Shown here: piece by piece, positions 27,514 to 45,530 of the stretch
Layout of the letters: every line of letters begins with the position of its first letter
Position numbering within the stretch: position 1 is the stretch's first letter
Assembly: GCF_045037415.1 (NCBI RefSeq)
Contig: NZ_CP173438.1
DNA length: 64,000 bases
Reading direction: 5' to 3' (one strand)
Origin: Escherichia coli
GTDB lineage: Bacteria; Pseudomonadota; Gammaproteobacteria; Enterobacterales; Enterobacteriaceae
Program-made: the position numbers and the translations under genes
Notes under the pieces: generated by a model
What the model saw: only the letters and a program-made list of their open reading frames with translations
Told to the model about the DNA's origin: nothing
Database searches by the model: none

Positions 27514-29664
27514 TTAACGCCGCCGACGGCGTGGGGATTTCGTTTTTTCTTTCTTTTTAACTATACCTTCAGGGACTTCCGGTTGCTCTATCGGAAATAC
27601 CGGTAATGCATCCAGTAGTCGCTTGCCATAATTTTTTGTCAGCAAGCGTTTGTCGTAGATAACCACTTCCCCCCAGCAACCGTGGCTTCGAATCAGTCGC
27701 CCAACCTGCTGAATCAGGTTAAACGAAGCGCTCGGCAGGCTTTGCACCTCAAACGGATAGCGGTTAAGGCTTTTCAGCCATTCACCTTCGGTGATCACCA
27801 CCGGACTGTCGATGGGCGGAAAAGCGATTTTGTGGATATGCACCTGGCTGAGCAGAGCGCCTTTCAGATCAAGACCTTCGGCAAAGGACTGTAAGCCCAC
27901 CAGCACGCTACGCTCACCGTTGGCAACGCGTTTGCGGTGCAGTTCAACTAAGCGATAACGTGGCTGATCGCCCTGCACCAGCAACATCAGGCGTAAATCC
28001 GTCACATAGTCGAGAAAGCGCTGCATCGCACGCCCGCTGGCAAACAGCACCAACATACCGAGATGTTTTTTGCTCTCCACCTGCTCACGGAAAAAGGCCG
28101 CCATTTCAGCAATGTGCTGTTCTTCGTTGTCGATGGAAGGCTCAACGCGCATCCGGGGAATAACAATTTTGCCCTGTTCGCAGTGGTTAAAGGGCGAATC
28201 CAGCGCCACAAAGCGGTCACCCGCTTTCTCTTTCAGCCCACTCATCTCCTGCAAACGCGAAAAACTGTTCAGCGAACGCAAGGTTGCGGAGGTAACAATA
28301 ATGTGCGGAATACTGCGCCACAGCAGCCTTTCCAGTTGGTCGCTAACACGAATACCCACACAGTGAAACCACAGATGTAGCTGCCCTTCGCGCTCTTCCC
28401 GCGTCGCCCATTTGGTCACCGGCGCACCGGAAGATTGCGCCAGAGACGCCAGCCGCCAGAGTTTGCTTTGCGCCTCGAACATCCCCAACGCGCGGTTCAT
28501 CTGCAAAATCAACCGATGCAGGCGTACAATGTCATGGCTGCCGGTTTTCTCACTTAAATCGTTAAGAAATAACTCCGCCAGACCACGCAGCATCTCGGTG
28601 AGTTTTGCCAGCCGCTGGCAGATCTCCAGCACTTCATCAGGCAGTTCGCCCATCGCAAAACGGTGCTCTGCCTCCTGCCCGGCAGGCATGTAGAGATTGA
28701 GAATGTTGTTTAACGAGGCGATAAGCTCATACAGCTCTTCACAATGCGCATTCAAACGTTCAGGGATCGCCAGCGGTGGGATGGTCTTCGGGCGAAACTG
28801 CTCCATGCAGGTGGCGACCAGTTTGGTGAACAGGTCCAGTTGGAGCCGGTACCAGGGCGCAGTGATTTCGGCGCTCATCTCCAGCGCATCCCGCGCCACA
28901 TCCGGCAGGTGATGACCTTCGTCCAGCACCAGCAGTAAATTTTTCGGGTCAGGCAATACCGCTTCGCTTTCCATTGCCGCCATCACCAGCGCATGGTTTG
29001 CCACCACCACTTCCGCTTCCTGAATTTCCCGACGAGCGACAAAAAACGGGCATTCGCGATAGTAGTAACAGTTGCGGTTGAGGCAGCTGGCTTTGTCGGT
29101 ACTCAAACGACGCCAGAGATCATCATCTATAGCGATATCAGTATGATCGCGCAGGCCATCCCATTTATAAGTGTCGAGATCGCCCTTCAGCTTCGCACAA
29201 CGTTTTTGCTCTTCCTGATTGTTCGGCGTCAGTTCGTCGTCAAGAAACGCCAGCAGATCCTGTTGCGTGGGCTCAGTGCTGGCGAGCGCTGTCAGATTAC
29301 GCGGGCAAACGTAGCGCCCACGCCCAAAAGCGGCAGTGAATTTAAGATCGGGAATGATCTTTTTCAGCAGCGGTAAATCTTTGCTGTAGATCTGATCCTG
29401 CAATGCCACGTTGGCGGTACTTACCACCAGCGTTTTTTGCTCTTCGCGGGCAATGGCGATGCCGGGGATCAAATAGGAGAGCGTTTTCCCAACGCCGGTA
29501 GGAGCTTCAATCGCCAGATGCCGCCCTTCTTCTCCGGCCAGCGTTTTGGCGACGTCCGCAATCATCTGCCGCTGCGGCGCACGGGGAATAAAGTCGGGGA
29601 TCTGTTCCTGAAGCGCCTTATACCAGGCGGCAATTTGCGCTTTAAGCGCGGCGGTTAATGCCAT
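27514..29664 (-). CDS. dinG: ATP-dependent DNA helicase DinG (SF2, Fe-S)
   Basis: 716 aa; Walker A APTGVGKT; DEAH-like box VLDEGHH; conserved Cys residues. Confidence 0.95.
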   Translation of the reverse strand: MALTAALKAQIAAWYKALQEQIPDFIPRAPQRQMIADVAKTLAGEEGRHLAIEAPTGVGKTLSYLIPGIAIAREEQKTLVVSTANVALQDQIYSKDLPLLKKIIPDLKFTAAFGRGRYVCPRNLTALASTEPTQQDLLAFLDDELTPNNQEEQKRCAKLKGDLDTYKWDGLRDHTDIAIDDDLWRRLSTDKASCLNRNCYYYRECPFFVARREIQEAEVVVANHALVMAAMESEAVLPDPKNLLLVLDEGHHLPDVARDALEMSAEITAPWYRLQLDLFTKLVATCMEQFRPKTIPPLAIPERLNAHCEELYELIASLNNILNLYMPAGQEAEHRFAMGELPDEVLEICQRLAKLTEMLRGLAELFLNDLSEKTGSHDIVRLHRLILQMNRALGMFEAQSKLWRLASLAQSSGAPVTKWATREEREGQLHLWFHCVGIRVSDQLERLLWRSIPHIIVTSATLRSLNSFSRLQEMSGLKEKAGDRFVALDSPFNHCEQGKIVIPRMRVEPSIDNEEQHIAEMAAFFREQVESKKHLGMLVLFASGRAMQRFLDYVTDLRLMLLVQGDQPRYRLVELHRKRVANGERSVLVGLQSFAEGLDLKGALLSQVHIHKIAFPPIDSPVVITEGEWLKSLNRYPFEVQSLPSASFNLIQQVGRLIRSHGCWGEVVIYDKRLLTKNYGKRLLDALPVFPIEQPEVPEGIVKKKEKTKSPRRRRR

Positions 29665-29678
29665 GAGAAAACCTGAAA

Positions 29679-29698
29679 TACTGTATAAACAGCCAATA
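29679..29698. promoter_or_regulatory. LexA (SOS) box of dinG
   Basis: tactgtataaacagccaata is the reverse complement of the recalled non-canonical dinG SOS box TATTGGCTGTTTATACAGTA; about 15 nt upstream of the dinG ATG. Confidence 0.8.
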
Positions 29699-29770
29699 TT
29701 GTGGCATTTTTCGGTTTTCAGGGGTAATGGTTTTTCTGTTTCTGGAAAGCGGCTCGCAATAACCAGCAGG

Positions 29771-29968
29771 ATGATGCGTAAAGCGCTTCGCGCTAAATTC
29801 GAACAACATGCAGAACTGCGTACACTCTTGCTGGCAACCGCGTCCGCAAAACTGGTTGAGCATACGCAAAATGATGCTTACTGGGGAGATGGCGGTAATG
29901 GTCAGGGCAAGAATCGCCTGGGGTACCTTTTAATGGCGTTGCGCGGACAATTGGCTGCGGAGAAGTAA
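29771..29968 (+). pseudogene. ybiA: C-terminal remnant of N-glycosidase YbiA (DUF1768)
   Basis: only the last ~65 codons (MRKALRAKFEQHAELR...WGDGG...NRLGYLL...) show YbiA/DUF1768 similarity; the upstream part of ORF 29663-29968 reads through the dinG promoter and LexA box, leaving no room for the ~95-aa N-terminal domain. Confidence 0.5.
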
Positions 29969-30050
29969 CGCATCGGGTGGCTTGTGGGCGTTAAAACAGA
30001 GAAATCTTTTTGCCGCGCTCGCAAATGGCTGACAAGTGCTTGTTGTGAAA

Positions 30051-30194
30051 TGCCGGATGCGGCGCGAGCGCCTTATCCGGCCTACAAAAACATGCACATT
30101 CAATATATTGCAGAGTTCACGTAGGCCTGATAAGCGTAGCGTATCAGGCAGTTTTGTGTTTGTCATCAGTCTCATGCCGGGCATAGCCCGGCAT
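30051..30194. repeat. REP/BIME-type composite extragenic palindrome (copy B)
   Basis: tgccggatgcggcgcgagcgccttatccggcctac ... aggcctgataagcgtagcgtatcaggca ... tgccgggcatagcccggca; same core as copy A. Confidence 0.75.
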
Positions 30195-30200
30195 AAAAGA

Positions 30201-31562
30201 TTACTGCGCAGCGGCAGGTTTACGCGGACGGCGGCGACGTTGTTGTTCGCCTGCCGGTTTGGCATCGCCGAGACGACGAGACGGTTTTTCTGCGGGCTTC
30301 GCGTTACCAGACTTCGCACCACTTTCCGCACGGCGTGGTTGCTGTTGACCGCGACCACCGCCCTGTCCACGACCGCCGCCACGTTGCTGGCGACCGTTTT
30401 GGATCGGTTCGGCTTTGATTGACGGGTCCGGCTCATAGCCCAGAATCGCAATGCGCGGGATCTCTTTTTTCAGCAGTTTTTCGATATCACGCAGCAGTTT
30501 GTGTTCATCAACACACACCAGCGACAATGCTTCGCCAGTTGCCGCCGCACGGCCAGTACGCCCGATACGGTGAACATAATCTTCCGGTACGTTTGGTAAC
30601 TCATAGTTGACGACGTGCGGCAACTCTTCGATATCCAGACCACGCGCAGCGATGTCAGTTGCCACCAGTACACGAATATCGCCCGATTTAAAATCGGCCA
30701 GCGCACGAGTACGCGCACCTTGCGATTTATTACCGTGGATCGCCGCACTACGGATGCCATCTTTATTAAGCTGTTCAGCCAGATGGTTAGCGCCATGTTT
30801 GGTACGGGTAAACACCAGCACCTGCTGCCAGTTCCCTTTCCCAATCATATGCGACAGCAATTCGCGTTTGCGTTTCTTATCGACAAAGTGAACGTGCTGG
30901 GTCACCTGATCAGACGCAGTATTGCGGCGTGCCACTTCGATTTCCAGCGGGTTGTGCAACAGTTTTTCCGCCAGGGCTTTAATATCGTCAGAGAAGGTCG
31001 CGGAGAACAACAGGTTCTGGCGCTTCGCTGGCAGTTTTGTTAACACGCGACGGATATCGTGGATAAAGCCCATGTCGAGCATGCGGTCAGCTTCATCAAG
31101 GACGAGGATTTCAACCTGATCCAGCTTCACTGCATTTTGATGTTCCAGGTCCAGCAGACGTCCCGGCGTTGCCACCAGCACATCAACGCCGCCGCGCAGC
31201 TTCATCATCTGCGGGTTAATGCTGACACCGCCAAACACCACCAGCGAACGAATGTTCAGGTATTTGCTGTAATCACGGACGTTTTCGCCAATCTGCGCCG
31301 CCAGTTCACGGGTCGGGGTAAGAATGAGCGCACGCACCGGACGACGCCCTTTGGCGTGCGGCTGGCGAGTGATCAGGTGTTGCAACAGCGGCAGCGTAAA
31401 GCCCGCTGTTTTACCTGTACCGGTCTGGGCGCTGGCCATCAGGTCGCGGCCTTCCAGCACCGCAGGGATCGCCTGCTGCTGAATAGGGGTGGGTTCACGG
31501 TAACCCTGCTCGGCAACGGCGCGCAGGATATCAGGGCTTAAACCCAAAGAATCGAAAGACAT
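30201..31562 (-). CDS. rhlE: ATP-dependent DEAD-box RNA helicase
   Basis: 453 aa; Q motif, Walker [13 protein letters not shown] box ([10 protein letters not shown]), SAT; Arg/Gly-rich C-terminal tail. Confidence 0.95.
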
Positions 31563-44401: not shown

Positions 44402-45391
44402 TTAGCCACCAATGTACGATAAGTTTTGCGTAATACCGGTGTTATTTTGATGCAGGAAATGGGTCTGTTTTTTCTCCCGCAGCGCCGCTGAAATACGCGC
44501 TTCCAGCGCCTGTTGCTGGGTATCGTTTTCCAGCAGATCGCGCAGGTTAACGCCGCCTTCACCAAACAGGCAGAGATGGAGTTTACCAATGGAGGAAACG
44601 CGCAGGCGGTTGCAAGTGGCGCAGAAATCTTTTTCATACGGCATGATAAGGCCAATCTCTCCGGCGTAATCCGGATGACAAAAGACTTGCGCGGGACCGT
44701 CGCTGCGTTGACGTAATTGGTGGATCCAGCCGCGACGCAGTAACTCGTCACGCAGAACCTGACCAGAGATGTGATGCTTACGGAAGAGCTCGCTGCCCTC
44801 GCCCGTTTCCATCAGTTCGATGAAACGCAGCTGGATGGGACGATGCTGGATCCAGTTCAGAAAGGTGTCGAGCTGGTGATGATTCACATCACGCATCAGC
44901 ACGGTATTGACTTTGACCTTCTCAAAACCGGCCTCAAATGCAGCATCGATTCCTGCCATGACCTGATTGAATTTATCCTGCCCGGTAATGGCATGAAACT
45001 GGCGAGCGTCAAGGCTATCAACGCTGACGTTGATGCCAGTAAGTCCAGCATCGCGCCAGTTCGCCACATCGCGCTCCAGACGGTAACCATTGGTGGTGAC
45101 CGCTATCTGGCGAATAGCGTCGTTTTCTCGCACAGCGGCGATGATATCGGTAAAGTCGCGGCGTAAAGATGGCTCACCACCTGTCAGACGGACTTTTTCG
45201 GTGCCCAGACTGGCGAAGGCGCGCGTAACCCGGCGAATTTCATCGACGGTCAGGAAGCCTTTATTGGTGACGCCGCTCGGCTTGTAACCATCCGGCAGGC
45301 AGTAGGTGCAACGAAAGTTACACACATCAGTAATCGACAGGCGCAAGTAGTAAAACTTACGCGCAAATGCATCAGTCAGTTGTGAAGCCAT
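44402..45391 (-). CDS. moaA: GTP 3',8-cyclase (radical SAM)
   Basis: 329 aa from [31 protein letters not shown]; radical-SAM CxxxCxxC. Confidence 0.93.
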
Positions 45392-45530
45392 GTACACCTT
45401 TCCAGATACGGGAGGCGAAGTCATTTCTTCCTTCGCCCTGGTGGCAATCTTTACGAGCATTGTCACGGCCAAAGCACCGTATCAGTTGACCCAGGTGCAG
45501 AGGCTAGAGTGTTTAGTGGTTAAGCCGATA
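45392..45530 (-). ncRNA. Moco riboswitch region in the moaA 5' leader
   Basis: structured leader directly upstream of moaA with hairpin ggcgaaggaagaaatgacttcgcc and RBS ggaaagg; assignment by position and recalled knowledge, not a covariance-model fit. Confidence 0.5.

Follow-up and report, generated by a model that had tools for sequence, protein, structure and literature searches.

YbiA of Escherichia coli K-12 is an N-glycosidase / ADP-ribosyl hydrolase of the NADAR family (Pfam PF08719, formerly DUF1768), with a structure deposited as PDB 2B3W and a gene of 483 bp. In the NADAR protein of E. coli C7 the catalytic residues are E88 and K95, which are largely conserved across the superfamily (PMC11543638), whilst a glutamate in the last beta strand is typical of the YbiA subfamily (PMC11125620). 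A second NADAR gene, linked to rpsU-dnaG-rpoD, has been described in some pathogenic E. coli that are without a K-12-type ybiA (PMC11125620). The present work concerns the ybiA locus within a stretch of 64,000 nt of E. coli DNA (assembly GCF_045037415.1, contig NZ_CP173438.1), hereafter the window, for which a first-pass annotation made from the letters alone had proposed that ybiA is reduced to a C-terminal remnant beside the promoter of dinG. We consider it very probable that ybiA has here been inactivated by a net deletion of 298 bp, that dinG, its promoter and its LexA operator are untouched, that the 101-amino-acid (aa) frame running across the site is incidental, and that the allele is fixed in phylogroup B2 and has been exchanged, as nearly the same haplotype, with Escherichia albertii.

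Content of the remnant and extent of the deletion

The features concerned, numbered from the first letter of the window, are these:

29771 to 29968, plus strand: ybiA remnant, codons 96-160 and the stop codon of the NADAR-family N-glycosidase YbiA, a pseudogene (Pfam, PDB match and annotation by the NCBI Prokaryotic Genome Annotation Pipeline, PGAP)
29766 to 29773, no strand: deletion junction, placed only to within these bases, reading ...CAATAACCA(G/C)CA and then GGATGATGCG...
29663 to 29968, plus strand: mechanical 101-aa open reading frame (ORF) from the ORF list, its first 36 codons running antisense through the dinG start codon, the LexA box and the promoter region, and its remaining 65 being the ybiA remnant

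Pairwise and multiple alignment with K-12 and three other intact alleles displays a single gap in the window, with collinear flanks and no foreign DNA, which is the arrangement of a pseudogene formed by deletion. The spacing of the K-12 locus is thus not that of the window, as K-12-type records measure 1399 bp over a region for which the window has 1101 bp, giving a net deletion of 298 bp. Lost are the 15 bp immediately upstream of the ybiA ATG, the start codon itself and codons 1 to ~95, and homology picks up again at the counterpart of codon V96, read as ATG in the window and as GTG in the intact alleles. The first-pass annotation had anticipated a deletion taking in the 5′ half of ybiA and part of the intergenic region. 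The deletion and the loss of the 5′ half are borne out by these alignments, but the size given, ~0.4 kb, was too large, and the intergenic share is confined to the 15 bp noted above.

The junction itself offers little homology. At 29766, B2 has G where K-12 and E. albertii have C. Microhomology at the breakpoint consists of a 2-nt CA alone, the junction shows a discrepancy of 1 nt from the intact alleles, and imperfect T(A/G)ATGCG repeats lie close by. Deletion between these repeats was considered and dropped, as the junction fits a breakpoint a few bases upstream of them. The CA overlap and the discrepancy argue for illegitimate recombination rather than a repeat-mediated event, and it is such recombination, with ~2 nt of microhomology, that probably removed the net 298 bp. 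An assembly or sequencing artefact restricted to one record, a possibility raised with the initial annotation, is excluded, given that 1,119 complete E. coli genomes, each assembled independently, and three E. albertii assemblies share this very junction and remnant.

What remains of the protein is clearly recognizable. The Pfam NADAR profile does not match the whole of the 101-aa ORF, but only its residues 33-97, corresponding to positions 88-162 of the 163 in the hidden Markov model (E = 3.5e-18), so that the domain is incomplete; likewise, only residues 92-160 of the 2B3W structure are matched (E = 4e-32). The relationship of the remnant to the family is thus far beyond chance, and the proposed reduction to ~65 C-terminal codons stands. 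Alignments with K-12 and other intact alleles place the SEHYFQAQK motif within the absent 298 bp, and the Glu and Lys of this motif are probably the catalytic pair (E48/K55 of K-12 YbiA), given that their 7-residue spacing is identical to that of E88/K95; neither is retained in the window. A KLVEHT segment is, by contrast, kept in the remnant and aligns with 2B3W, its glutamate presumably being the last-strand residue of the YbiA subfamily, as judged from the description in PMC11125620 and not from a structure-based alignment. The remaining 65 codons would therefore encode the C-terminal part of the fold only, with the LVEHT segment included; because the N-terminal half of the fold and the conserved Glu/Lys pair are absent, the remnant could not form the enzyme. 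The native ATG is gone along with the bases before it, leaving the remnant with no translation start of its own, and reading by eye detected no suitably spaced Shine-Dalgarno sequence for any of the ATGs at 29663, 29771 and 29774. Enzymatic function has, in all likelihood, been lost, and the remnant appears to be untranslated.

On the other side of the junction, the features are as follows:

27514 to 29664, minus strand: dinG, encoding a full-length 716-aa ATP-dependent DNA helicase and unaffected by the deletion (ORF list; RefSeq annotation of strain SK1144 at the same coordinates)
29679 to 29698, minus strand: LexA (SOS) box of dinG, TACTGTATAAACAGCCAATA on the plus strand and TATTGGCTGTTTATACAGTA on the dinG strand
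29665 to 29765, no strand: retained part of the divergent dinG-ybiA intergenic region, containing promoter and operator of dinG (aligned with K-12 without mismatch as far as 29765)

Both dinG claims of the first-pass annotation hold, in that the 716-aa ORF is intact and the LexA box does lie at 29679-29698, where the plus-strand sequence is the reverse complement of the dinG motif AATATTGGCTGTTTATACAGTATTT printed in Table 4 of PMC3009722. Over its first 101-104 bp, counted from the dinG ATG, the spacer has the K-12 sequence without a single difference, and thus both the operator and the region upstream of dinG are intact. Since the promoter region and LexA operator are untouched, dinG regulation should be unchanged by the deletion. 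The similarity to ybiA, which had been expected to start ~105 bp from the dinG start codon, was measured to do so at ~104 nt. This proximity is not a consequence of the deletion, because the K-12 spacer is itself only 119 bp, of which 104 bp are retained. A consensus promoter and terminator scan of 29550-30300 returned no sites on either strand, a result that says nothing on transcription of the remnant or on the dinG promoter.

The window is collinear over its 64 kb with positions 3254198-3318197 of E. coli SK1144 (NZ_AP018784.2), from which it differs at only 4 nt. SK1144 is listed as phylogroup B2 (PMC12366417), and the window is B2 chromosome as well. Compensation by a NADAR gene at rpsU-dnaG-rpoD was ruled out in SK1144, where mug directly follows the operon as in K-12 and no NADAR gene is present, this being the one locus searched.

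Constraint on the remnant and the 101-aa frame

Rates of non-synonymous (dN) and synonymous (dS) change for the remnant and its comparators are as follows:

Remnant versus intact E. coli alleles: dS 0.19-0.25, dN 0.058-0.073, dN/dS 0.26-0.31
Intact ybiA alleles at comparable dS: dN 0.005-0.014, dN/dS 0.04-0.15
dinG, B2 versus K-12-like: dN/dS 0.008
rhlE, B2 versus K-12: dN/dS 0.036

Between B2 and E. albertii the remnant has a dN/dS of 0.6, on 3 changes only. Variants of the 101-aa ORF in public collections display radical replacements at conserved positions (L86P, L56R, G75E, G76S and R39C). Taken together, these comparisons point to relaxed constraint on the remnant, the effect lying in the expected direction, although it is modest and built on small counts.

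A number of observations weigh against simple inactivation. With E. marmotae used to polarise the changes, the remnant lineage shows no excess of substitutions in total over the intact one, 6 (5 non-synonymous to 1 synonymous) as against 7 (4 to 3, the 4 falling in 2 codons), and the counts are small. The 65-codon frame is open in every genome examined, although within-allele divergence is only ~1-1.5%, and the open frame therefore says little. The retained 104-bp spacer could still contain a ybiA promoter, such that the remnant may be transcribed, and spread across a species boundary followed by fixation in B2 could hint at selection as opposed to drift.

The 101-aa frame corresponds to the chimeric frame of the first-pass annotation, which reads through the dinG promoter. 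The open frame is real, and its ATG shares bases, within CCATGA, with the start codon of dinG on the opposite strand. It nevertheless exists simply because the remnant happens to be in frame with this ATG, and a Pfam search found no family match for its N-terminal 32 residues. No evidence for a gene was found, and the frame is best seen as a mechanical by-product from which, most probably, no functional protein is made.

The opposing view, that the remnant is a functional small gene whose product of 65 or 101 aa serves a new role, perhaps under joint regulation with the SOS-controlled promoter region of dinG, is considered highly improbable. It can draw on the ORF being intact in all B2 and E. 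albertii sequences examined, and hence open in >1,100 genomes and a second species, on the coding sequences called here by several annotation pipelines, and on an allele that crossed a species boundary and became fixed in B2. Conservation of the first 36 codons is, however, explained by dinG, as they lie antisense to its conserved promoter and operator, and no ribosome-binding site is positioned at a workable distance from the candidate ATGs. The probable catalytic Glu/Lys and the N-terminal half of the fold are gone, dN/dS is raised to ~0.3-0.6, and radical polymorphisms, L86P, L56R and G75E included, segregate within the allele; PGAP, moreover, treats the remnant as a pseudogene.

Inactivation of ybiA also agrees with how the feature is recorded by that pipeline. 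In every genome examined, the PGAP call has precisely the bounds 29771-29968 and reads 'NADAR family protein, incomplete; partial in the middle of a contig; missing N-terminus', the pseudogene tag in SK1144 being DAECLI1_RS16265. At the same time, public protein collections contain both translations, of 101 aa and of 64/65 aa, as exact matches under names that include 'Swarming motility protein ybiA', 'DUF1768 domain-containing protein' and 'N-glycosidase YbiA', with strains 536, SE15, ATCC 25922, APEC IMT5155 and O25b:H4-ST131 among their sources. Also in these clusters are fragments attributed to Staphylococcus aureus and Enterobacter hormaechei, from very short contigs of 434-739 bp, which are probably the result of contamination or mislabelling. 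No paper discussing the ybiA pseudogene of B2 strains was found. The feature is, in short, already known to databases and is an ordinary pseudogene; its importance is low, as a lineage-specific pseudogene that the NCBI pipeline already flags, whilst the fragment names in UniProt and older GenBank records constitute an annotation error that can propagate.

Distribution in E. coli and sharing with Escherichia albertii

Occupancy of the slot between dinG and rhlE was counted in 5,426 complete E. coli genomes, of which 5,415 fall into four mutually exclusive states:

Intact ybiA (298-bp K-12 segment present): 3,429 genomes
Remnant allele of the window at >=95% identity: 1,119 genomes (about a fifth)
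espX2 replacing ybiA: 542 genomes
PaaA2-family antitoxin and RelE/ParE toxin: 325 genomes

The remnant allele is present at >=99% identity in 1,055 of its 1,119 genomes, with O25b:H4-ST131, O2:H1 and O16:H6 strains amongst the carriers, and it is fixed in phylogroup B2. All B2 strains sampled, including ST131, 536 and ATCC 25922, would be without functional YbiA, and the phenotypes attributed to ybiA in K-12 (swarming, riboflavin-intermediate damage control and guanine de-ADP-ribosylation) are not to be assumed for them. The four-state slot also provides a convenient lineage marker. The left breakpoints of the three non-intact states lie within 7 bp of each other, at window positions 29759, 29763 and 29766; no sequence feature or mechanism explaining this clustering was found. 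The espX2 allele (record L004) has a second copy of CTCGCAATA just inside its breakpoint.

Beyond E. coli, the 101-aa protein cluster includes entries labelled E. albertii, and the identical junction (CAATAACCACCA joined to GGATGATGCG) with the same remnant haplotype is present in three E. albertii assemblies (L015, L016 and L017), one of them from the type strain NBRC 107761 = DSM 17582. Remnants from this species differ from that of the window at 3-4 of 198 nt (3 of 198, ~1.5%, for the type strain), and window 29750-30150, comprising the remnant and downstream spacer, has 7 differences to the type strain in 400 nt. For the flanking genes the same comparison yields a dinG dS of 0.27 overall and 0.25 in the 1,050 nt adjoining the remnant, whilst rhlE is about 6-8% divergent. 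Neutral vertical inheritance would give the remnant more divergence than its flanks, not ~15 times less, and homologous recombination between E. albertii and the B2 lineage is therefore the indicated explanation, by which the deleted haplotype crossed the species boundary.

Separately from the remnant, ~1 kb of the dinG 5′ region (window 28570-29660) in E. albertii L016 (GCA_002937375.1) is nearly identical to B2, with ~1 mismatch per 150 nt as opposed to 5-14 per 150 nt in the type strain. This segment is a separate and recent import from a B2-like E. coli.

Searches for the source of the haplotype gave few leads. A 17-mer scan of genome contigs returned, among Escherichia, only the E. albertii type strain, together with chance matches in unrelated taxa, and the best intact allele among the 5,426 E. 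coli genomes is 92.4% identical to the remnant. A protein search for a close intact allele using the 65-aa remnant retrieved short fragments only, and a reconstructed full-length query retrieved the general E. coli cluster and E. marmotae, none with the remnant-specific residues. That the haplotype arose in E. albertii or a close relative and was then imported into the B2 ancestor, as opposed to arising in B2 and being exported, is a tentative proposal for which the evidence is rather finely balanced. In its favour, the remnant lies 8-10% from every intact E. coli allele, and the corresponding dS of 0.19-0.25 is nearer to that of E. albertii-E. coli dinG (0.25-0.27) than to that of B2-K-12 (0.16). 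It also has Q140 and A158 as in E. marmotae and not as in E. coli; E. albertii retains the ancestral C at the junction, and a one-step ACG codon where B2 has ACA; and two E. albertii strains are already 3 of 198 nt apart within the remnant. Set against this, the dS values derive from only 46 synonymous sites and are not significantly different, and similar numbers would be expected had ybiA become a pseudogene early in B2 and then decayed neutrally. Further to this, E. albertii has a derived change of its own (E110K), meaning that neither haplotype is ancestral to the other, the B2-like dinG of L016 lying next to the remnant shows flow from B2 to E. albertii, and an intact E. albertii ybiA for comparison was not found.

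Trees of E. coli often have phylogroup B2 branching close to the base. This placement, together with the presence of the short form in a sister species, could be taken to mean that the short form is ancestral and that K-12-type strains gained the 298 bp. Such an order of events is almost inconceivable. The N-terminal 95 residues specified by the 298 bp belong to a domain whose conservation reaches well beyond Escherichia: full-length homologues of 64-74% identity occur in many lineages, and E. marmotae has one of 91% at this very locus. The short form, for its part, has nothing to match Pfam positions 1-87. Remnants that are 1.5% apart between flanks with a dS of 0.25-0.27 reflect, moreover, recent exchange rather than common ancestry. 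The closest full-length relatives of YbiA outside Escherichia (64-74%) are mostly from metagenome contigs, the few named sources being Planctomycetota, Gemmataceae and Pirellulales, and no other named Enterobacteriaceae occur among the YbiA matches listed. This suggests that the distribution of ybiA is patchy, possibly via horizontal acquisition.

Whether loss of YbiA by deletion was of benefit is a further consideration. Because one deleted haplotype moved between E. albertii and the B2 ancestor and became fixed in B2, and because ybiA was replaced independently in two further pathogenic lineages, with nearly coinciding breakpoints, the loss could be viewed as adaptive and repeatedly selected or, with less likelihood, as retention of a remnant product for a new role. 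We regard this wider reading as unlikely. Cross-species sharing and the four-state slot are, more soberly, modest population-genetic curiosities, and illustrate on a small scale that sequence passes between E. albertii and E. coli.

Gene neighbourhood and comparison with known alleles

The features to the right of the remnant are these:

29969 to 30200, no strand: spacer between the remnant and the end of rhlE, part of the haplotype common to E. albertii (sequence reading and sliding-window comparison)
30201 to 31562, minus strand: rhlE, flanking the locus on the right, with an intact product of 453 aa, an ATP-dependent RNA helicase (ORF list and SK1144 annotation)

The window as a whole extends from moeB to ybhA. 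Gene order around the locus is hcxB, ybiB and dinG (all on the minus strand), the ybiA remnant, rhlE (minus) and cecR (plus), which is the same as in K-12; the remnant sits where its orthologue does, pointing away from dinG and lying upstream of the rhlE 3′ end. RhlE ends in an Arg/Gly-rich C-terminal tail (window 30201-30330) that differs in length and sequence by lineage, the whole protein numbering 453 aa in the window, 448 aa in E. albertii and 454 aa in both K-12 and E. marmotae. Repetitive extragenic palindromic (REP)-type repeats at ~30040-30196 fill the spacer between the remnant and rhlE, and a 1.1-kb query spanning this spacer is found at a median of 5 places per genome, the extra places being attributed to these repeats. 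A 46-aa ORF at 29984-30124, also within the spacer, appears to be the 46-aa 'hypothetical protein' of at least one RefSeq genome (L011, 3213-3353). An Rfam scan of the window found no RNA family at the dinG-rhlE locus; its sole match was an ordinary Moco (molybdenum cofactor) riboswitch (RF01055, 103 bits) at 45379-45523 on the minus strand, upstream of moaA.

With regard to sequences already on record, the RefSeq/PGAP pseudogene and the deposited 101-aa and 65-aa entries are the same feature as that of the window, with no sequence difference. Their status is in conflict, given that PGAP has a pseudogene where UniProt and older GenBank records have a protein-coding 'N-glycosidase YbiA'.

The espX2 allele, which carries a type III effector gene and is found in O157:H7, O55:H7 and O145:H28 strains, and the toxin-antitoxin allele (L003) both possess the same dinG and rhlE flanks as the window. 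In these two alleles, however, ybiA is wholly replaced by foreign DNA, whilst that of the window contains none and keeps the 3′ part of the gene.

The closest described counterpart remains K-12 YbiA (PF08719/DUF1768, 2B3W), the gene for which occupies the same position between dinG and rhlE, divergent from dinG, and to which the 65 C-terminal codons of the remnant are 86% identical in protein and ~90% in DNA. The allele of the window differs from it in being without the start codon, the 15 bp upstream and residues 1 to ~95, and in a level of non-synonymous change within the remnant that is 5-10 times that between intact alleles.

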